NCBI GenBank assembly: GCA_000146045.2 | Contig: BK006937.2 | Coordinates: 192,001-256,000 of the forward strand | Direction: 5' to 3' | DNA length: 64,000 nt | Origin: TPA_inf: Saccharomyces | Taxonomy: Eukaryota | In this document: positions 5,621 through 47,054 of the stretch, in pieces | How positions within the stretch are numbered: position 1 is the stretch's first letter | Layout of the letters: each line of letters starts with the position of its first letter | Program-made: the position numbers and the translations under genes | The notes under the pieces: generated by a model | What the model saw: the letters and a program-made list of their open reading frames with translations, nothing else | Told to the model about the DNA's origin: nothing | Databases searched by the model: none

Positions 5621-7549
5621 TTAGGTAAGCCTTGGAACCTTAGCTATACTGACTTGATACGCCCTGTCTTTGTTGTCGTTATATAAAGTGTGCACCTTTA
5701 TCATAGCCCCTAATAAGCTTCTTGCAGTAGTATTTGAACAGTGTATATCTTCATATTGCTTTTGTTGTAAATATTGCGCAAAAGCGACTATCTTTGTGAT
5801 TTGGTTGAACTTTTGCATATTCACGTTATTACCATCTTTAGTGAATGTATCGTTTCCGTCTCTTATGAAGGTAATGTCCCTGATAAGCAGTGATGTAAAA
5901 GGTACACAAGGAAGCTGACTGTGGAAAATATGTTTAATTGTTCTTCTATAAACGTTGTAGTTGTTGTTTGGATGTACGACGACTTTTAGGCGCTGAAAAA
6001 GGTGGTCTGATTTAACATCTATCGGGAGAGATAGTCTTTCTATTGAATGATTTTGCAATGATGTAATGATTGAAGCAAGTGAGTTTAAGTTTCGTAAGTA
6101 TAGACAAGACAGTGCAACTTGTAACCAGTAGGAAATGGTGTGCGTTTGCTGCAAAGTTGTCTCAAGAACGTAGGACGATAACTGGTTGGAAAGCGTAAAC
6201 ACGGAGTCAATTGTTGTATCGTTGTGTTTGAAATGTCTTGTGAATTCTATTGTTTCAATATCCAAGTAAAGAGAAGATTCTAAGAGAGTCAATGTCTTTG
6301 CAAGTGACCATGGAGATACGTTTAGAGCGAAGGCTTCGACTTCTAGAAGTTCACCCTGTTTCCATTGGAAAAGTAAATCACTGAGGTCAGTTGCACCGCA
6401 CAATTCATCATTTGCGTTCGTTTTGTCTATCTCGTATTGGAGAAATAAGTTTTCGTAGTCCAGGGGCGGTTTATTTTCTTCGATTTCCTTATCAGTTAGA
6501 CCAATGTAATGAATCTTCAATTGCCTCGTTCTTTTTTTGTTTATAAACAGCTGAACTATGTCTGCAAACAGTTCTTGGTATTCATAATATTCAGCCAAGT
6601 GACTGTACCAAAAATTGAGGATATCTTTTAATGTTGTCTCACTATCTTGCCAATAAGACTCTACCCAGATTTGTATTAGACGAGGGACGGAGTGATTTTT
6701 GTGTTTGTTTTTATTAATTGTGGGATAGGATAGTAGCAACTCTTGGAGGAGAGCATTGTCAGTTGTCCAGTCTCTGAAGTTAAGTAGTAAGTTTGCGGAG
6801 TCAAAGGGGGATGGCTTTTGCCATTTGTGAGAGTTGTGCGGCAGCATCTTATTCAAATAGAGCTGTATTCTGAAGACCTCTTGTAGAACATCATCCATAC
6901 TAAAAAGTAAATCGTCCTGTCCCATTACGAGCTGTATTAGTGCTGTGACCCTCTGTATATTTACGTTGCCATGAAGAAGGTAATGGGCGATATTTTGATA
7001 CAATTCCTGAGTTGCATGTTGGATTGAGTTTACGAAGGGTCGCCAGACGGCCAGAAACCTCCAGGCGGAGTTAACAACTAGTAATACGGCATCCATGTTT
7101 GCATCAGCGCCGAGCCTATACCAGTCACTGAGTAGACGTTTTCTTGCTCTTTTTATGTCCTGACTTCTTTTGACGAGGGGGCATTCTCTAGAGACACAGG
7201 CAGTTGCTTCCAGCAACTGCCGTACGGCCGTTCTCATGCTGTCGAGGATTTTTTTTGGGACGATATTGTCATTATAGGGCAGTGTGTGACTTATGAATTG
7301 TTGTAGAAGGACGTCTGTGATGTTGGAGATATGTATTTTGTTAACTCTTCTTGAGACGATTTGGCCCTGGATAGCGAAGCGTGCGGTTACAAATAGGTCG
7401 TCTTGTTCAAGAAGGTAGGCGAGGACATTATCTATCAGTACAAACATCTTAGTAGTGTCTGAGGAGAGGGTTGATTGTTTATGTATTTTTGCGAAATATA
7501 TATATATATATTCTACACAGATATATACATATTTGTTTTTCGGGCTCAT
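5621..7549 (-). CDS. BUD5: Ras-family GEF (Cdc25-like) for Rsr1/Bud1, used in bud-site selection. The N-terminal extent is ambiguous (alternative ATG at 7447).
   Basis: A C-terminal RasGEF-like domain is present. The location abutting MATalpha2 is diagnostic. The first 34 codons run through a (TA)n low-complexity tract. Confidence 0.85.
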
Positions 7550-8178
7550 TCTTTCTTCTTTGCCAGAGGCTCACCGCTCAAGAGGTCCGCTAATTCTGGA
7601 GCGATTGTTATTGTTTTTTCTTTTCTTCTTCTATTCGAAACCCAGTTTTTGATTTGAATGCGAGATAAACTGGTATTCTTCATTAGATTCTCTAGGCCCT
7701 TGGTATCTAGATATGGGTTCTCGATGTTCTTTGCAAACCAACTTTCTAGTATTCGGACATTTTCTTTTGTAAACCGGTGTCCTCTGTAAGGTTTAGTACT
7801 TTTGTTTATCATATCTTGAGTTACCACATTAAATACCAACCCATCCGCCGATTTATTTTTCTGTGTAAGTTGATAATTACTTCTATCGTTTTCTATGCTG
7901 CGCATTTCTTTGAGTAATACAGTAATGGTAGTAGTGAGTTGAGATGTTGTTTGCAACAACTTCTTCTCCTCATCACTAATCTTACGGTTTTTGTTGGCCC
8001 TAGATAAGAATCCTAATATATCCCTTAATTCAACTTCTTCTTCTGTTGTTACACTCTCTGGTAACTTAGGTAAATTACAGCAAATAGAAAAGAGCTTTTT
8101 ATTTATGTCTAGTATGCTGGATTTAAACTCATCTGTGATTTGTGGATTTAAAAGGTCTTTAATGGGTATTTTATTCAT
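7546..8178 (-). CDS. MATALPHA2: Homeodomain transcriptional repressor alpha2 of the MATalpha idiomorph
   Basis: Full-length 210-aa match, [28 protein letters not shown]...[18 protein letters not shown], including the homeodomain WF..N.R motif. It is transcribed divergently from alpha1. Confidence 0.97.
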
Positions 8179-8323
8179 TTTTTCTTGCTTATCTTCCTTT
8201 TTTTCTTGCCCACTTCTAAGCTGATTTCAATCTCTCCTTTATATATATTTTTAAGTTCCAACATTTTATGTTTCAAAACATTAATGATGTCTGGGTTTTG
8301 TTTGGGATGCAATTTATTGCTTC

Positions 8324-8343
8324 CCAATGTAGAAAAGTACATC
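8324..8343. promoter_or_regulatory. a1-alpha2 (haploid-specific gene) operator in the alpha1/alpha2 divergent promoter
   Basis: CAATGTAGAAAAGTACATCA fits the hsg operator consensus (C/T)ATGT-N9-TACATCA, with 20-bp spacing of the half sites. Confidence 0.75.
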
Positions 8344-8441
8344 ATATGAAACAACTTAAACTCTTAACTACTTCTTTTAACCTTCACTTTTTATGAAATG
8401 TATCAACCATATATAATAACTTAATAGACGACATTCACAAT

Positions 8442-8969
8442 ATGTTTACTTCGAAGCCTGCTTTCAAAATTAAGAACAAAGCATCCAAATCATACAGAAA
8501 CACAGCGGTTTCAAAAAAGCTGAAAGAAAAACGTCTAGCTGAGCATGTGAGGCCAAGCTGCTTCAATATTATTCGACCACTCAAGAAAGATATCCAGATT
8601 CCTGTTCCTTCCTCTCGATTTTTAAATAAAATCCAAATTCACAGGATAGCGTCTGGAAGTCAAAATACTCAGTTTCGACAGTTCAATAAGACATCTATAA
8701 AATCTTCAAAGAAATATTTAAACTCATTTATGGCTTTTAGAGCATATTACTCACAGTTTGGCTCCGGTGTAAAACAAAATGTCTTGTCTTCTCTGCTCGC
8801 TGAAGAATGGCACGCGGACAAAATGCAGCACGGAATATGGGACTACTTCGCGCAACAGTATAATTTTATAAACCCTGGTTTTGGTTTTGTAGAGTGGTTG
8901 ACGAATAATTATGCTGAAGTACGTGGTGACGGATATTGGGAAGATGTGTTTGTACATTTGGCCTTATAG
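8442..8969 (+). CDS. MATALPHA1: Alpha-domain transcriptional activator alpha1 of the MATalpha idiomorph
   Basis: 175-aa match, MFTSKPAFKIKNKASKSYRNTAVSKKLKEKRLAEH...YWEDVFVHLAL. The HO cut site lies inside its 3' end, as in MATalpha. Confidence 0.97.
   Translation: MFTSKPAFKIKNKASKSYRNTAVSKKLKEKRLAEHVRPSCFNIIRPLKKDIQIPVPSSRFLNKIQIHRIASGSQNTQFRQFNKTSIKSSKKYLNSFMAFRAYYSQFGSGVKQNVLSSLLAEEWHADKMQHGIWDYFAQQYNFINPGFGFVEWLTNNYAEVRGDGYWEDVFVHLAL
8845..8880 (+). other. HO endonuclease recognition/cleavage site at the Yalpha/Z1 junction
   Basis: The sequence ACTTCGCGCAACAGTATAATTTTATAAACCCTGGTT matches the canonical MATalpha Y/Z HO site (core CGCAACAGTATA). Confidence 0.9.
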
Positions 8970-9173
8970 AGTGTGGTCGTGGCGGAGGTTGTTTATCTTT
9001 CGAGTACTGAATGTTGTCAGTATAGCTATCCTATTTGAAACTCCCCATCGTCTTGCTCTTGTTCCCAATGTTTGTTTATACACTCATATGGCTATACCCT
9101 TATCTACTTGCCTCTTTTGTTTATGTCTATGTATTTGTATAAAATATGATATTACTCAGACTCAAGCAAACAA

Positions 9174-12100
9174 TCAATTCTTAGCATCATTCTTTGTTCT
9201 TATCTTAACCATAAACGATCTTGATGTGACTTTTGTAATTTGAACGAATTGGCTATACGGGACGGATGACAAATGCACCATTACTCTAGGTTGTTGTTGG
9301 ATCTTAACAAACCGTAAAGGTAAACTGCCCATGCGGTTCACATGACTTTTGACTTTCCTTTGTTTGCTAGTTACCTTCGGCTTCACAATTTGTTTTTCCA
9401 CTTTTCTAACAGGTTTATCACCTTTCAAACTTATCTTTATCTTATTCGCCTTCTTGGGTGCCTCCACAGTAGAGGTTACTTCCTTTTTAATATGTACTTT
9501 TAGGATACTTTCACGCTTTATAACAATATCAAGTTTACCTTCTTCATTACTATTCATCTTCGCCACAAGTCTTCTCTCCCTTGGTGTTTCCAATCTAACT
9601 ACAAAACTGTTGATTAGGGTGTACATCACCCTAACAAGATCATGTATTTGCTTCCTCTGGTACAAGCTAAGAACAGGTAAATTCAAAACATCCCAGAGTA
9701 ATATCTTCAAAGGGCTATACCCTTTAAACATATCTCGGCATATTTGTATTAACCCACTAATATTTTGACGGCCAATCTTTTCTATTTTTATTTTCATATC
9801 ATCGACGTAATGACCACTTAAAAACAACTCAATATCATCCTCACTTTTTATATTTTTAACTTCATTGTGCACAGATTGGACGGAGGACTTAATATCGTCA
9901 CTTATGGTATCCAAACTACCATCCATAACAACTAGATTTACACATTCAGAAAGCACATCAACACTTTTATCCCTAATATAAGAATCCTCATGGAAGCAAA
10001 GTATTTCAGTAAACAAAACAAGGGCATCCTTGTTTTTTAAACCACCTTCTAAAAGCATGATTTTCAAAACCATTAAAAACTCATTCTGAAAGCTTTCCCT
10101 GGAAATATCTCCGTTATTTATACCTAATGTTAATGTATGCATTATCATTCCTGTCAATTCCGTAAAGTCATAAGCACCCACTTTATGCAATTTGTACTTA
10201 GCATACATGATAGTAGTCTTAATCAAAGACTCGTATGATGAAAGCCAATTCACCAAATTTTCGTACCTCAATAACTGAGTCTTAACTTTTTCCATATATG
10301 CTTTATCTTTATACTCATTTAAAGCAACTTTAACAACATTTTCAATCAAGCTGCGGACGTACGCATCATCACTGTATTTATTTTCACCATTCTCATTATA
10401 AACAAGAATATCCAGTAAAAATTGCTTCACCAATTTTGGACATTTACCATTTTCATTTTTCACTTTAGCCAAATATTTGGGAATATTACACTGTAAGAAA
10501 TACAACTTAGGATTCTCAAAGTTATTACTCTTTGGAATATTAGAGTCTTCTAGGCAAAACAAAATCTGAAAAATCTGAATTAAATGCTTAACACCGCCAG
10601 TAAAATCCGGATCATATACGTATTTACTAAGCGCTTCGCACGCCGCGAGTCTTATGCCAAAAAAGTAACGCTCGTCGATCGCCGTTCTAAACAAAATACT
10701 TGAATAAACAAGTGATTTCACACCACCATTAACAACGACGTCCTCATAATATCGTATGGCTTCTAGTTGGGCCTCTATGTCCCCATCTTGTCTCAACTGA
10801 GAAGAAAACATGTAATCCGGCTGATTAATGTGCATTTGGCAAATCCATTCCAGATCAGAGTCTATGCGTATCCACTCAAATGCTTCGTTTTGCTTAAGCA
10901 ATTCATTACTCTCAGACGTACGATTAAATTCCGTCAAACTGAATCGGGAACACTCTTCGGGCGACATGTATACATTTCCTAGACAATTCACATCCACAAC
11001 AATAGGCTTCTCCTCATTATTGTTTTCAACACCATTTTCATCATTTGCACCACCACCTCTTTTCCTTAATCTTCTGTACTTTGTATTGTACTGAATATCT
11101 ATTTTTGTGAATGTATCTTTGATTTCCACAATATGCTCATACGGAGTACCATCGTGTTCATGGATCCTTATAGTCATCGAGCCCGTGAAGCATTCGGTTC
11201 GGTTCAAATCTGGATGTTCTAAGTGGTCTAGTGCACTTTTGAAAAATCCTTCCTCCCCTACCACTTTTTCGTGGCCAAGTTCTTCATCTTGAACTTGCCT
11301 TATACCCAGTTCTATAACCATCCTCTTCCTATTAAATCTTTGGGTGACACGTAATATGGGTACCCCAGACCCATATACCCATTCGTTGAAAAAATTCTCT
11401 AATTTACTTTTATTAACTCTTTCGCAAACATGTTGAAAATGCGATGAAGTCAACGAATTATTCGGTAAATCACCAGACATAGCTTGAAGGAAAATTTTAG
11501 GTAATACTCGAGACATACCGAAAGATCGTTCTGTTTTAGTCATCCTTCTGTCAAGTATGTGTAGTATCATCGGTGCCTTCAATTGTATAAAGGACAAATC
11601 TTTAGAAGACCAAGATATTGGCCTAGAACTGCCGGTAAAAGTGCTCCCAATAGGCGGTTTCTCGAAGTCTTGTTCCACAATCGCCTCACTATTACGCTTT
11701 AATTGATATTTATACGTGTTATTACCCATTAATTTTTTGGTTACCTGAAACACCATATAACCAGCAATACCAAGACAGCACCAGTAGTCGTTCATATCTA
11801 AAGGAGTTATATTCACACAAGACCATTGGTTAGCAAGTGCCCATGCTAACTCATTCGTAGTACTGAATGCTTTATCAATAACTTCTAGAGGGTACAATAA
11901 TCTGGTATTACAAATGCCTAATGCTGCAAAATCCATATGCTTAGAAGGTGCGGTAGGTAAAAACACCATAGAGTAACAAGTGAAAGGATAAGACCCAAAT
12001 TCTTTCGAGTAGAAATCTATAATTTTTTGGCAGACAACTGTCGAATTTATAACTGTTAACTCATCTGTTTCCTGCGTCGGAAGTGTGAAAATTTGAATGG

Positions 12101-13397
12101 GTATAATATCCGAACCAATGTCGTCATCCATAGTATCGTTAACATTGTCCACAACATTCTCTCTCAACTTGTCTTCCTCTACTTCGTCCTCGGCATCAAC
12201 ACTTGGAGGTGATATCAAAGGTAAAGACCATGAATTAAAGGCGCCTATAGCCCAACCAATGTGATGTGGAGCCACAGGATTAATTATCTGAAATATGCAT
12301 TTTTTTTTCGTCAAATCAATCGGGTGCGGAAGTTCTTTAATATTTGAATATTCTGAACAACACACAATCACATCCCTCAAACTCGGATTGTTGCTTTCCT
12401 CAATATTCCGCCTTTCCTCTTCCCCTTCCTCTTCCTCTTCGTCACTTTCGCCTTCCTCTTCTTCTTCATCATTATCTTGTGCATCTTTGCTTTTACTATT
12501 TTTGCCTTCTTCGTCATTTTTCAAGTTAGAATCCTTATCTTCGTCTTTGATAACTCTTGCCGGCTTCCCCTCTTCCTCTTCATCGTGCTCAGGCGTATCC
12601 TCCTTCTCTTTTTCACTCTCTTCTCCATTTTGTCCGATTAATTTCGAAGTACCTATATTTTTAACCAATCTCGGTACGCTGAATTCTAACTCCCATGTAG
12701 ATTTTTCATCAAGCAAATCGACACATGGGACCCAATATGATGCAGAACTGCAAATCTCACCATTTGAAGTGTAAACGTTCCATAACCAGGGCTTGTCAGC
12801 ATACACAGTATCGAATTTAATACCCGACTTTGGGTTTCTGATTTCATATTCAATTTGTAATGTAATTGGAGTGAAAACAGATTCTTGAAACCCAGGGGTA
12901 GTCTTAATTGAAGGAGTAATCGGAGTGTAATTACTTAATGCATTGGCGTCCTCCAAAGATATTTTGATGGAAGATGGTATTTTTATAGTTAACTGGGATT
13001 TAGAGTCCGTTTCTGGGTATTCATTCAAGCTAGCAAACTTAGATCTCAAAAAATGTGACTGTTCAATGGAATTGTCGCTGTATAATACATTTTGTGAAGT
13101 CAATCCATTCAAATTTGTTTGAAGTGGGTCGTCATGAATAAATTGATCACATCGACGATTTTCGACCAGAACATCTTTAATAGTCATTTCCTTGCAATCA
13201 AAAGTTACATATTCTAGGTTTTGGATCAACGGAATGATTATTATAGTAGCGCTACCGGTAATGCAGTGAGTAGCTAGATCTATATCCAACGAGATTTTTT
13301 CATGGGCAACTCTAAAATTTCTAAACTTCATCTCATGCAAAGTGCTAGATTCACTAACAATGGCTCTAGGAGTGGCGTTTTTGGAAAAGGACATCAT
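9174..13397 (-). CDS. TAF2: TFIID subunit TAF2 (M1-aminopeptidase-like fold, acidic Glu/Asp tract, basic C-terminal tail)
   Basis: A 1407-aa ORF lies immediately distal to MAT. It has an acidic block EEEEGESDEEEEEGEEE and a K-rich C-terminus. Position matches YCR042C. The start was taken at the MMSF ATG (13397) rather than the track's upstream start at 13406. Confidence 0.88.
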   Translation of the reverse strand: MMSFSKNATPRAIVSESSTLHEMKFRNFRVAHEKISLDIDLATHCITGSATIIIIPLIQNLEYVTFDCKEMTIKDVLVENRRCDQFIHDDPLQTNLNGLTSQNVLYSDNSIEQSHFLRSKFASLNEYPETDSKSQLTIKIPSSIKISLEDANALSNYTPITPSIKTTPGFQESVFTPITLQIEYEIRNPKSGIKFDTVYADKPWLWNVYTSNGEICSSASYWVPCVDLLDEKSTWELEFSVPRLVKNIGTSKLIGQNGEESEKEKEDTPEHDEEEEGKPARVIKDEDKDSNLKNDEEGKNSKSKDAQDNDEEEEEGESDEEEEEGEEERRNIEESNNPSLRDVIVCCSEYSNIKELPHPIDLTKKKCIFQIINPVAPHHIGWAIGAFNSWSLPLISPPSVDAEDEVEEDKLRENVVDNVNDTMDDDIGSDIIPIQIFTLPTQETDELTVINSTVVCQKIIDFYSKEFGSYPFTCYSMVFLPTAPSKHMDFAALGICNTRLLYPLEVIDKAFSTTNELAWALANQWSCVNITPLDMNDYWCCLGIAGYMVFQVTKKLMGNNTYKYQLKRNSEAIVEQDFEKPPIGSTFTGSSRPISWSSKDLSFIQLKAPMILHILDRRMTKTERSFGMSRVLPKIFLQAMSGDLPNNSLTSSHFQHVCERVNKSKLENFFNEWVYGSGVPILRVTQRFNRKRMVIELGIRQVQDEELGHEKVVGEEGFFKSALDHLEHPDLNRTECFTGSMTIRIHEHDGTPYEHIVEIKDTFTKIDIQYNTKYRRLRKRGGGANDENGVENNNEEKPIVVDVNCLGNVYMSPEECSRFSLTEFNRTSESNELLKQNEAFEWIRIDSDLEWICQMHINQPDYMFSSQLRQDGDIEAQLEAIRYYEDVVVNGGVKSLVYSSILFRTAIDERYFFGIRLAACEALSKYVYDPDFTGGVKHLIQIFQILFCLEDSNIPKSNNFENPKLYFLQCNIPKYLAKVKNENGKCPKLVKQFLLDILVYNENGENKYSDDAYVRSLIENVVKVALNEYKDKAYMEKVKTQLLRYENLVNWLSSYESLIKTTIMYAKYKLHKVGAYDFTELTGMIMHTLTLGINNGDISRESFQNEFLMVLKIMLLEGGLKNKDALVLFTEILCFHEDSYIRDKSVDVLSECVNLVVMDGSLDTISDDIKSSVQSVHNEVKNIKSEDDIELFLSGHYVDDMKIKIEKIGRQNISGLIQICRDMFKGYSPLKILLWDVLNLPVLSLYQRKQIHDLVRVMYTLINSFVVRLETPRERRLVAKMNSNEEGKLDIVIKRESILKVHIKKEVTSTVEAPKKANKIKISLKGDKPVRKVEKQIVKPKVTSKQRKVKSHVNRMGSLPLRFVKIQQQPRVMVHLSSVPYSQFVQITKVTSRSFMVKIRTKNDAKN

Positions 13398-14260
13398 GAA
13401 GTCCACCTATTTATCCTGTTGTCACCTCTTCACTGTCCAAAACTTCATCAAAAAATACTTTTACATCCGTTCCATTTTACTATAGTTTTCATCTTACGCA
13501 ATTTACCAATTGCCCCATTCGGCAAAAGTATTTAAGTGTTACCCGGTTACTTAAGGTAATACCAAAAATATTCACTATATTGAAAGTTCTATGTATTTTA
13601 TTGAATTAAATAAGACTGATTTTGTAGCACGATATCCGCAAGAATGATTCACAACCATTTTAGATGTCTGCAGCTTTTTTTTTTTTGATTTTTTTACTAA
13701 TTTTAGTGCGATTTTAGAATAACTCTTGGATTAAATAAATAAAAAAAATACAATTATCACTCAGATTTTGAAGCAATCTGATAAAAATTGCAGCATATTA
13801 TTATAACAATTCTAGTTCACTACAAACAGCACATTATCAAGAAACTTATGTTTGATGGACAGTTTCTTCAAATAATTGAATGCAGTAAAAAATAAAAAAA
13901 ATAACCATGGAATATGTTTCTAAGAATTCGCAATCCTTGTTTATATAACTATAGCTTTTTTTATGTTATAAGAAAACATTTATTCCTTTAACCAAAAGGA
14001 AAAAGGTAACAACCCCACTTACCCCTCTGTCAATAGTTAATCATTTTATTATTTTCAACTTTAAACATCCAAAAAAAATAAAATAAATTAAATTAAAATC
14101 AAATAGAAAATGCATTATTACTATAATAATATCTCTATGTAGACATATACATATTATTTCATTGCTTTTTGTAATAAACGAGGAAAATGGTGGGATAAAA
14201 AAATGCATTGTTATTCCTTCGAAACCAGCAGTAATAAGTCGTCCTGAGAACGATGTAGAT

Positions 14261-35941: not shown

Positions 35942-36042
35942 GGCACTATGGCCGAGTGGTTAAGGCGAGAGACTCGAATGGAATAAAAAGTTCGGCTATC
36001 TCTTGGGCTCTGCCCGCGCTGGTTCAAATCCTGCTGGTGTCG
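35942..36042 (+). tRNA. SUP61: tRNA-Ser (anticodon CGA) with a ~19-nt intron 3' of the anticodon. This is the SUP61 locus.
   Basis: GGCACTATGGCCGAGTGGTTAAGGCGAGAGACTCGAA[intron]...GGTTCAAATCCTGCTGGTGTCG. Box A TGGCCGAGTGG and box B GGTTCAAATCC are present, as is the long variable arm of a class II tRNA. A T-run follows the 3' end. Confidence 0.92.
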
Positions 36043-45213: not shown

Positions 45214-46776
45214 ATGTTGCATAAAAGCCCTTCAAGAAAGAGATTTGCTTCTCCTTTGCATCTAGGATGCATTCTAACGCTTACAGTGCTCTGCCTTATT
45301 GCTTACTACTTTGCTTTACCGGATTATTTATCGGTAGGGAAGAGCTCATCCAGGGGTGCCATGGATCAAAAATCTGATGGAACCTTTAGACTTAAGTCTA
45401 TCTACAGGCATGGCGTCGGAGCAAACCATCGGCTACACCAGAGGCTGGAGGTCACTCCAGAAGTTATTTCTGCCGCTGGAATGCTGTATCAAGAAACCAC
45501 AACTCAAGGACAGGATTTCGAAGACCAAGAACCCCTATGGACTACTAATGCCGAATATGCCACCACTAACCCATTCGATTTTGAGTTTGAGCTACGAAGG
45601 ATGCCGCTATTGATGAAGCGGATGAAGGAAAGAGATCCTGAATTCATAGAGTCGTACATTTACGGAGAAACATACATGACGGAGGAGGAAGAACACGCCA
45701 TGTGGATAGATGATGACATTGTGGCACCCAATATCACAGATAGAGGTACAGTAGTGTCGTTAGCATTAATGTCGTCTAATGCTTACGTGAGAATACCGCA
45801 AACGGGAGACTGGCGTAACGTCACGGAGCCGTGGAATGAAACAGAGCCGGAAGATTTTGGTTGGGATGGTGATGGTATACGTGGTCACGTCTTTTACAAT
45901 GAAGTGGAGAATATCGTGGTACTCTCGATAAAGGGAACCAGCGCTCAGGGTTTGCCAGGGTCTGGCGAAGATGAGACAACTGGAAACGACAAGATCAACG
46001 ATAATTTGTTATTTTCGTGTTGTTGTGCAAGAGTGAGCTACCTGTGGACTACCGTGTGCGATTGCTATGTGAAGTCGTATATATGCGATGAGTCTTGCCT
46101 GGAAAAGGAACTGAGACGTAAGGATAGATTTTACTCTGCAGTCGTTGACATATACAAAGGCGTCCTCAAAGAATACCCCGATGCGGCCATATGGGTCACA
46201 GGCCACTCACTGGGAGGCGCATTGGCCAGTTTACTGGGCCGCACTTTTGGATTGCCTGCGGTCGCATTCGAGTCCCCTGGAGAGCTACTACCTTCAAAAA
46301 GACTTCACTTACCATTCCCACCGGGACTTCCCTCATACATGGAGGGTATCTGGCACTTCGGTCACAACGCAGACCCAATCTTCATGGGTACATGCAACGG
46401 AGCTAGTTCAAGTTGCTCACTGGTGGGCTACGCTATGGAAACCGCGTGCCACACTGGTAGAGTCTGTGTCTACGATGTGGTCAACGACAAGGGCTGGAGT
46501 GTAAACATGTTCAACCACAGAATCCACAAAGTCATTGACGAAGTTCTCCTTGGATACGAGCAGGCTGCCAAGTGCGTTGAACCAGAGCCCTGCGTAGATT
46601 GCTACAACTGGAAGTTTATTCCAAGCAGAGACTGGGAATCCTCATCGAGGCTCATTACCAAGACTAAAAGCCACGCTGCACCAACCACGACGACTCGCAC
46701 CACTGCTACTACTACCTCTTCATCTACCTGTGTAGGCCGCAATTGGCTTGGCTTCTGCACCAAATACGAGTTGTAA
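45214..46776 (+). CDS. ATG15: Vacuolar phospholipase/lipase (class 3 lipase; autophagic body lysis)
   Basis: N-terminal TM/signal anchor and the lipase nucleophile elbow GHSLGGALASLLG. 520 aa. Confidence 0.88.
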   Translation: MLHKSPSRKRFASPLHLGCILTLTVLCLIAYYFALPDYLSVGKSSSRGAMDQKSDGTFRLKSIYRHGVGANHRLHQRLEVTPEVISAAGMLYQETTTQGQDFEDQEPLWTTNAEYATTNPFDFEFELRRMPLLMKRMKERDPEFIESYIYGETYMTEEEEHAMWIDDDIVAPNITDRGTVVSLALMSSNAYVRIPQTGDWRNVTEPWNETEPEDFGWDGDGIRGHVFYNEVENIVVLSIKGTSAQGLPGSGEDETTGNDKINDNLLFSCCCARVSYLWTTVCDCYVKSYICDESCLEKELRRKDRFYSAVVDIYKGVLKEYPDAAIWVTGHSLGGALASLLGRTFGLPAVAFESPGELLPSKRLHLPFPPGLPSYMEGIWHFGHNADPIFMGTCNGASSSCSLVGYAMETACHTGRVCVYDVVNDKGWSVNMFNHRIHKVIDEVLLGYEQAAKCVEPEPCVDCYNWKFIPSRDWESSSRLITKTKSHAAPTTTTRTTATTTSSSTCVGRNWLGFCTKYEL

Positions 46777-47054
46777 GACCCATACATCTATTATGACCCT
46801 AGTGTTGTTTTAGGGCCTATGCGCCCTTTTTTTCTTCCATTGTCTGATAAATAATGTATCATTTTGACAACTTAAAGGTTCAGCTAAACGACACGAGAAG
46901 ATATATTAATACTGCTTTAAAGTGAAAGGCGTCAGTCAGGTGCAATTAATAGGTCACATATTCTTTGCTTCAATTGCTCTCTAGCAAACTCACACACTCG
47001 TAGATTGGAAGACCGAAGAAAATAGATAGACTTTCGAATAAGTTCAGCAACAAC

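Follow-up and report, generated by a model that had tools for sequence, protein, structure and literature searches.

An intact MATalpha locus between BUD5 and TAF2 in a 64-kb window of Saccharomyces cerevisiae DNA

Two divergently transcribed mating-type genes, MATalpha2 and MATalpha1, were identified between BUD5 and TAF2 in the window, i.e., the whole 64-kb stretch of DNA that was analyzed (Table 1). The products of all four genes were exact matches to S. cerevisiae S288C proteins (4/4); furthermore, the alpha2 sequence has an exact entry under the name "mating-type protein ALPHA2" (HMAL2_YEAST) and matches the MAT alpha-2 chains of the PDB structures 1mnm, 1apl, 1yrn, and 1akh. A previous reading of this DNA, made from the letters alone (the sequence-only reading), had described a mating-type locus in the alpha configuration, with alpha2 on the minus strand, alpha1 on the plus strand and a 263-bp divergent promoter between them. 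All of these coordinates proved correct, and the alpha configuration was borne out by the intact alpha1 and alpha2 genes, the Yalpha block and the MAT flanks. Neither alpha gene carries a frameshift, both ORFs being full length and encoding the exact reference proteins.

Table 1. Genes, sites and homology blocks at the MATalpha locus (positions within the window).
Feature	Position	Strand	Basis
BUD5 (642 aa, RasGEF)	5621..7549	-	ORF; exact match to S288C BUD5 NP_009967.2
W block (730 bp)	6671..7400		Common to HML only; identity to HML copies L004/L001 starts at 6671, to HMR copy L012 only at 7401
X block (703 bp)	7401..8103		Common to HML and HMR; 100% identity to HMR copies L012 and L013, sharp borders at both ends
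MATalpha2 (210 aa, homeodomain repressor)	7546..8178	-	Intact ORF; Pfam Homeodomain PF00046, E 4.7e-09
a2-type sub-ORF (119 aa)	7546..7905	-	Translation; starts at an internal Met within alpha2 and shares the alpha2 stop
Yalpha block (747 bp)	8104..8850		Aligns to HML; without match in HMR
Divergent alpha2/alpha1 promoter region (263 bp)	8179..8441		Gap between both start codons; two candidate regulatory sites inside
Candidate Rap1-type upstream activating site ACCCAGACATC	8286..8296	-	Two matches in the window, this one included, vs 0.54 expected by chance
Candidate a1-alpha2 (haploid-specific gene) operator AATGTAGAAAAGTACATCA	8326..8344	+	One mismatch to CRTGTNNWNANNTACATCA
MATalpha1 (175 aa, alpha-box/HMG-like co-activator)	8442..8969	+	Intact ORF; Pfam MATalpha_HMGbox PF04769, E 9.8e-14; exact match to S288C alpha1
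HO endonuclease recognition sequence CGCAACAGTATAATTTTATAAACCCTGG	8851..8878	+	Exact match, inside alpha1, on the Z side
Z1 block (239 bp)	8851..9089		Common to HML and HMR
Z2 block (88 bp)	9090..9177		Common to HML only; HML identity ends at 9177, HMR diverges from 9090
TAF2 (1407 aa)	9174..13397	-	ORF; TAF2 Pfam domains; exact match to S288C Taf2p NP_009971.1

Within the divergent promoter, two candidate regulatory sites were found. The first is what we take to be an a1-alpha2 operator, both the consensus CRTGTNNWNANNTACATCA and its role being assumed here from general knowledge; it is the sole match in the window with a single mismatch, the other four having two mismatches, which is the level expected by chance. 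The second is presumably a Rap1-type activating site, again by a role that we assume, and taken alone it is weak evidence. A scan for sigma-70 promoters and intrinsic terminators follows a bacterial model and was disregarded for this yeast locus.

The HO recognition sequence CGCAACAGTATAATTTTATAAACCCTGG has a single, mismatch-free occurrence in the window and was matched in 0/100 shuffles; its position inside the 3' end of alpha1 is the one that the sequence-only reading had given for an intact site. The core CGCAACA occupies 8851-8857 and the 4-nt overhang AACA 8854-8857, the first base of the core being the start of Z1. At the inc positions, which we take to be Z2 and Z6, the window has the consensus bases G and C. 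In the literature, CGCAACA is described as the 7 nt with which Z opens, located inside MATalpha1 and cut to a 4-bp overhang (PMC7282813); the "stuck" (stk) allele corresponds to a T to A change at Z11 (PMC12405464), and inc sites are mentioned without positions (PMC7591073). The stk change had been singled out beforehand as a mutation worth checking, and the window has T at Z11 (position 8861), so its HO site is not of the stuck type. Moreover, Z1-Z28 of the window recurred unchanged in 26 of 27 further cassette copies (MAT, HML, and HMR) examined. The sole exception was one HMR copy (L016, CM029091.1) with the T to A change at Z11, and since this copy showed the stk change, the check was able to detect it. 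On these grounds, the site appears intact and free of known cleavage-blocking mutations. The same HMR copy illustrates that defective alleles exist, and one might suppose that this MATalpha has decayed or can no longer switch, through a frameshift in alpha1 or alpha2 or through an inc- or stk-type mutation in the HO site; however, each alpha ORF runs its full length and encodes exactly the reference protein, and Z1-Z28 is that of the 26 wild-type copies, including T at Z11. For the positions examined, a decayed or uncuttable locus is refuted by the intact ORFs and the wild-type HO site, and we regard it as highly improbable.

The block structure was delimited by blastn and base-level definition of borders against HML-alpha cassettes (L004 and L001) and HMR cassettes (L012 and L013), all of these copies belonging to other S. 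cerevisiae strains and not to the window's own genome. Homology to HML-alpha spans exactly 6671-9177 (2507 bp), and the outer limits named in the sequence-only reading are precisely where this identity starts and stops; homology to HMR is limited to 7401-8103 and 8851-9089. The predicted pattern was thereby recovered with copies from other strains: HML has a counterpart of each of W, X, Y, and Z, HMR matches X and Z1 alone, and Yalpha is matched by HML alone, the Yalpha block anticipated at about 8.10-8.85 kb being measured at 8104-8850. The only change needed is one of vocabulary, as "idiomorph" had been applied to the entire 2507-bp cassette and in strict usage denotes the allele-specific Yalpha (747 bp). 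What we take to be the published sizes of Yalpha, Z1, and Z2 are likewise 747, 239, and 88 bp, and those of W and X (723 and 704 bp) are a few bases apart from the 730 and 703 bp obtained here.

Regarding content, W lies entirely within the BUD5 coding sequence, and X takes in alpha2 over its 3' 558 nt, the a2-type sub-ORF in full and the initial 149 nt of BUD5. Because the sub-ORF falls wholly in X, it is carried by every cassette, and genes with a product identical to these 119 aa have been called at HMR and MATa loci. Codons 1-25 of alpha2 and 1-136 of alpha1 lie in Yalpha, with the divergent promoter between them, and Z1 contains the HO site and the remainder of alpha1, namely 39 codons and the stop. 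Compared with HMRa and MATa, the window shares X (703 bp, 100% identity), Z1 (239 bp, with two differences from HMR, at 9065 and 9081, where the window has C and HMR has T), the Z-side half of the HO site and the a2-type ORF. In contrast, a 643-bp Ya block, unrelated to Yalpha, stands between X and Z1 in these loci in place of the 747-bp Yalpha of the window, the HO site is different in its Y-side half (GTTTCAGCTTTC vs GGGACTACTTCG), and HMR is without W or Z2 homology.

The cassette extends unequally into its two neighbors. On the BUD5 side, codons 1-293 of 642 (879 nt, 6671-7549) fall in W and X, in agreement with the proposal that the W/X side reaches into the 5' end of BUD5, and the BUD5 ATG (7547-7549) overlaps the alpha2 stop codon (7546-7548). 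Existing annotations differ in the BUD5 start, with product lengths of 642, 608 or 538 aa. The RasGEF domain predicted by Pfam (residues 416-581) is outside this shared part. Since W and part of X carry these 293 N-terminal codons, HML has a truncated BUD5 copy, YCL068C, which equals BUD5 residues 35-293. On the opposite side, TAF2, an essential gene, had been said to share its last codons with Z; the stop at 9174 was right, but the overlap with Z2 is limited to 4 nt (9174-9177), i.e., the stop codon (9174-9176) and one more base, the third of the terminal Asn codon, the cassette ending at 9177. What Z shares on this side is the downstream region of TAF2, presumably the 3' UTR and terminator of this gene. 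In the proposed account, Z1 and Z2 would carry this region as far as the TAF2 stop codon, and the overlap with neighboring genes would be a by-product of the extent of the duplicated blocks. Both neighbors had been considered essential, which does not hold for BUD5, as bud5-delta strains are viable and bud at random (PMC8914336).

Cassette sequence alone cannot separate MAT from HML, because HML-alpha copies (HMLALPHA1, HMLALPHA2, and YCL068C) are the same as 6671-9177 except for 1-5 substitutions over the 2507 bp, which take in the HO site and the beginning of BUD5. HML is silenced through its flanking E and I elements. One alternative is that the cassette is a silent HML-alpha copy and not the expressed MAT locus. 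The flanks, however, are those of MAT: in the window, BUD5, full length and with its RasGEF domain, is followed by PHO87, and TAF2 lies at the opposite end of the cassette, whereas HML loci lie near the left telomere, 3-28 kb from the chromosome end, beside a 260-aa truncated BUD5 copy without the GEF domain and genes of the MFS transporter and PALP (CHA1-type) kinds; outside 6671-9177, similarity to HML falls to random. The silent-copy explanation is refuted by these flanking genes, and its remaining probability is practically nil. Placement of the cassette between BUD5 and TAF2, established from ORFs, Pfam domains and exact protein matches, marks the position of MAT, not that of HML or HMR, in accordance with previous descriptions of BUD5 and TAF2 as flanking MATalpha and of YCL068C as flanking HML (PMC4065246).

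The genes, exact proteins, and BUD5/TAF2 neighbors are the same as those of the S. cerevisiae MATalpha locus on chromosome III (SGD MATALPHA1/YCR040W and MATALPHA2/YCR039C), as are the W/X/Yalpha/Z1/Z2 layout and the HO site, with no detectable difference between the reference locus and the window. It is thus almost certain that 6671-9177 represents the expressed MATalpha locus of S. cerevisiae, indistinguishable from the S288C reference. Judging from flanks unlike those of HML beyond 6671 and 9177, the locus is probably actively expressed and free from Sir silencing. It is ordinary, textbook biology, in which everything is already known, and the sequence-only reading was right to call it established rather than novel, since it matches the known S. 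cerevisiae MATalpha throughout. MAT, HML, and HMR are among the best-studied models of recombination, and this picture is unchanged by the present locus. The value of the result is in annotation: it places the window on S. cerevisiae chromosome III around MAT, it types the sequence as MATalpha with base-exact W/X/Y/Z borders, and it corrects two details, BUD5 being non-essential and the TAF2 overlap with Z2 being limited to the stop codon plus one base.

From established knowledge, alpha1 encoded here would act with Mcm1 to turn on alpha-specific genes, and alpha2 with Mcm1 would repress a-specific genes; in a diploid, alpha2 and a1 would together repress haploid-specific genes, including alpha1, through the candidate operator at about 8326-8344. 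With an active HO gene, cleavage at CGCAACA would generate a 4-nt 3' overhang, the Z1 end would invade one of the silent donors, which in a MATalpha cell is normally HMRa, and Ya would be copied across to X, with replacement of Yalpha. It is nevertheless rather probable that the locus is intact but idle, meaning that its source was heterothallic (ho), that the HO site and the W, X, and Z blocks go unused and that MATalpha does no more than fix the alpha mating type stably. In S288C, the ho allele is non-functional, the HO gene being on another chromosome, and the exact S288C matches of all four proteins point in this direction, although such matches are common to many strains; the gene coordinates and the tRNA at 35942-36042 likewise fit 192001-256000 of chromosome III in the S288C reference; if the source was S288C, the HO site would be intact yet never cut in that strain. 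An idle state qualifies the main explanation, that of an intact and expressed MATalpha locus, and does not replace it.

Comparison between strains further shows gene conversion footprints at MAT, with HML as well as HMR as donor. At positions 6944, 7040, 7454, 7518, 7544, 7942, and 8753, variants found in a single strain were common to the MAT and HML of that strain, and two natural MATalpha loci had HMR-type bases at 9065, 9081, and 9090-9107. More tentatively, and with the balance against it, switching-associated co-conversion could regularly reach well past Y, with BUD5 codons 1-293 evolving together with YCL068C at HML, and HMR-templated tracts could extend past the nominal Z1 end into degenerate homology, as the bases at 9090-9107 suggest. 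Co-conversion of MAT-flanking sequences has been described before. This extended co-conversion concerns MAT generally, the window's own cassette being HML-type throughout. On the TAF2 side, a haplotype identical to the window over 9178-12000 (0 mismatches) was found alongside either Ya or Yalpha at MAT.

Elsewhere in the window, a tRNA gene that had been missed by the ARAGORN scan was located with Rfam at 35942-36042 (101 nt); it is longer than a standard tRNA, and we think that it contains an intron.

The DNA holds the reference MATalpha locus of S. cerevisiae, which is already known. Exact-sequence look-up returned alpha1, alpha2 (HMAL2_YEAST), BUD5 (NP_009967.2) and Taf2p (NP_009971.1), all under S. 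cerevisiae S288C names, and the PDB MAT alpha-2 chains 1mnm, 1apl, 1yrn and 1akh matched the alpha2 protein. These matches, together with the ORF list and Pfam, agreed with the sequence-only reading on both mating-type genes and the divergent gap between them; its account of the locus was confirmed as an observation and essentially right as interpretation, with corrections regarding BUD5, TAF2 and the word "idiomorph".

Features of the MATalpha cassette and its neighbours (window positions)
Feature	Position	Strand	Size	Basis or remark
W	6671-7400		730 bp	common to HML only
X	7401-8103		703 bp	common to HML and HMR
Yalpha	8104-8850		747 bp	common to HML only
Z1	8851-9089		239 bp	common to HML and HMR
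Z2	9090-9177		88 bp	common to HML only
BUD5 ORF	5621-7549	minus	642 aa	ORF list; Pfam RasGEF
alpha2 ORF	7546-8178	minus	210 aa	ORF list; Pfam Homeodomain
a2-type ORF	7546-7905		119 aa	nested in alpha2
alpha2/alpha1 spacer	8179-8441		263 bp	
Candidate Rap1-like site	8286-8296			ACCCAGACATC; alpha2/alpha1 intergenic
Candidate a1-alpha2 operator	8326-8344			window's only 1-mismatch match to consensus
alpha1 ORF	8442-8969	plus	175 aa	ORF list; Pfam MATalpha_HMGbox
TAF2 ORF	9174-13406	minus	1410 aa	ORF list; Pfam TAF2 domains; 1407 aa from ATG at 13397

The silent cassettes HML and HMR both lie outside the window, and copies for comparison were taken from publicly available chromosome III assemblies of S. 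cerevisiae, with one chromosome (CP006356.2) giving MAT (L003), HML (L004) and HMR (L012). Exact look-up of the alpha1 protein hit two types of location, both on the same chromosomes of ~310 kb: one has neighbours as in the window, and the other is 3-28 kb from the left chromosome end, next to a 260-aa ORF and to genes of the MFS transporter and PALP types; the latter, having different neighbours, is HML. HMR and MATa loci were returned for the 119-aa nested ORF. By blastn, HML homology spanned 6671-9177 (2507 bp, 1 mismatch) and HMR homology was limited to 7401-8103 (100% identity) and about 8847-9095, the block borders being fixed by base-by-base inspection. In HMR, X and Z1 are separated by 643 bp of Ya, which is unrelated to the Yalpha of the window. 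Thus, the alignment proposed in the sequence-only reading gave the predicted W/X/Y/Z sharing pattern, and its outer limits were right to the base, although "idiomorph", applied there to the entire cassette, fits Yalpha only. The Yalpha, Z1 and Z2 lengths equal what we take to be the published values, and W and X differ by a few bases from the corresponding 723 and 704.

The HO string proposed earlier occurs once, at 8851-8878, with 0 mismatches (0 of 100 shuffles matched), and lies within alpha1. Position 1 of Z is window 8851, and the motif CGCAACA occupies bases Z1-Z7. Classic inc alleles probably lie at bases Z2 and Z6, both of which have the consensus base in the window. CGCAACA forms the core of the HO site and opens Z as its first 7 nt, the site falls inside the coding sequence of MATalpha1, and HO cutting leaves a 4-bp 3' overhang in a degenerate site of ~24 bp (PMC7282813). 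The "stuck" (stk) allele is a T to A change at Z11 (PMC12405464); the window has the wild-type T there, at 8861. Bases Z1-Z28 were identical across all fetched MAT, HML and HMR copies except the HMR of CM029091.1 (L016, GCA_016858165.1; L016:9130-9170), which reads CGCAACAGTAAAATT, i.e., the stk change; this copy is thus the positive control of the HO-site check. A switch using this HMRa as donor would place a poorly cut site at MAT. Separately, the MAT locus of GCA_947370715.1 (L019:9000-9800) has on the Y side of the HO site TGCGGCTCTTCG, which differs from both the standard Ya and the standard Yalpha sequence, and its alpha1-to-TAF2 side is only ~94% identical to the window; this cassette may be a divergent or introgressed alpha type.

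What was observed directly is the gene content and block structure, an HO site of wild-type sequence, flanks specific to MAT, and conversion footprints in the population. Under the established model, alpha1 with Mcm1 would switch on alpha-specific genes, alpha2 with Mcm1 would repress a-specific genes, and in diploids a1-alpha2 would repress haploid-specific genes; in HO strains, a break at base Z1 would be followed by gene conversion from a silent donor, replacing Y. The exact protein matches and coordinates suggest S288C (ho) as the source, and if so, the HO site, though intact, would be unused in this strain.

BUD5 was described earlier as an essential neighbour overlapping W and X. The overlap stands, since codons 1-293 (879 nt) lie inside the cassette, covering the whole of W and 149 nt of X, but essentiality does not, as bud5-delta strains are viable with random budding (PMC8914336). 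The catalytic RasGEF domain (Pfam, residues 416-581) is outside the shared part. Exact-sequence look-up identified the 260-aa ORF of HML as YCL068C, which comprises residues 35-293 of BUD5, then one divergent residue and a stop, a partial BUD5 expected because W and X are duplicated. The ATG of BUD5 (7547-7549) and the stop codon of alpha2 (7546-7548) overlap, so the promoter of the 642-aa form would lie inside the alpha2 gene. The BUD5 start (7447-7549, minus) is annotated inconsistently among assemblies, as 642, 608 or 538 aa.

On the other side, Z was said to cover the last codons of TAF2. An overlap is present, but since the TAF2 stop codon is at 9174-9176 and HML homology stops at 9177, it amounts to 4 nt, namely the stop codon and the third position of the terminal Asn codon. 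Alpha1 and TAF2 converge, with 204 bp between their stop codons; this DNA lies within Z1 and Z2 and presumably holds the 3' ends of both genes. Position 9173, 1 nt past the TAF2 stop, is A in the window, in the MAT locus L002 and in all HML copies; of the five MAT loci other than the window's, four (L003, L005, L008 and L009) have T. Outermost Z2 at MAT is therefore not always homogenised with HML.

We aligned the window cassette with five MAT/HML pairs, each from one chromosome, and found 34 variable columns, the window differing from the HML copies by only 1-5 nt. Strain-private variants were present in both MAT and HML of CP006295 (6944, 7518, 7544 and 7942), CP006336 (7040), CP006298 (7454) and CP006356 (8753). 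On this alignment, such sharing is the signature of concerted evolution, which extends into W, i.e., the BUD5 coding sequence. Furthermore, the MATalpha loci of CP006336.2 (L008) and CP006298.2 (L009) have T at both 9065 and 9081, plus substitutions in a run at 9090-9107, all equal to the bases at HMR, in what looks like the footprint of a past HMR-templated co-conversion with a tract slightly beyond the nominal Z1 end (9089). The window is HML-type at 9065-9107 and throughout the cassette. Moreover, an identical TAF2-side haplotype (0 mismatches, 9178-12000) accompanies Ya in four assemblies and Yalpha in one.

Within the alpha2/alpha1 spacer, the operator and Rap1-like roles are putative, and the two candidate sites are weak as sequence evidence. 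The pattern behind the Rap1-like site, ACCCANACAYY, matches at just one other place in the window, ACCCATACATC at 46778-46788 (plus), which lies 2 nt beyond an ORF spanning 45214-46776. Elsewhere, Rfam reported a 101-nt tRNA gene at 35942-36042 (plus; 43.5 bits), missed by ARAGORN, which we think contains an intron, judging from its length, and which fits the tRNA-Ser(CGA) gene SUP61 of chromosome III.
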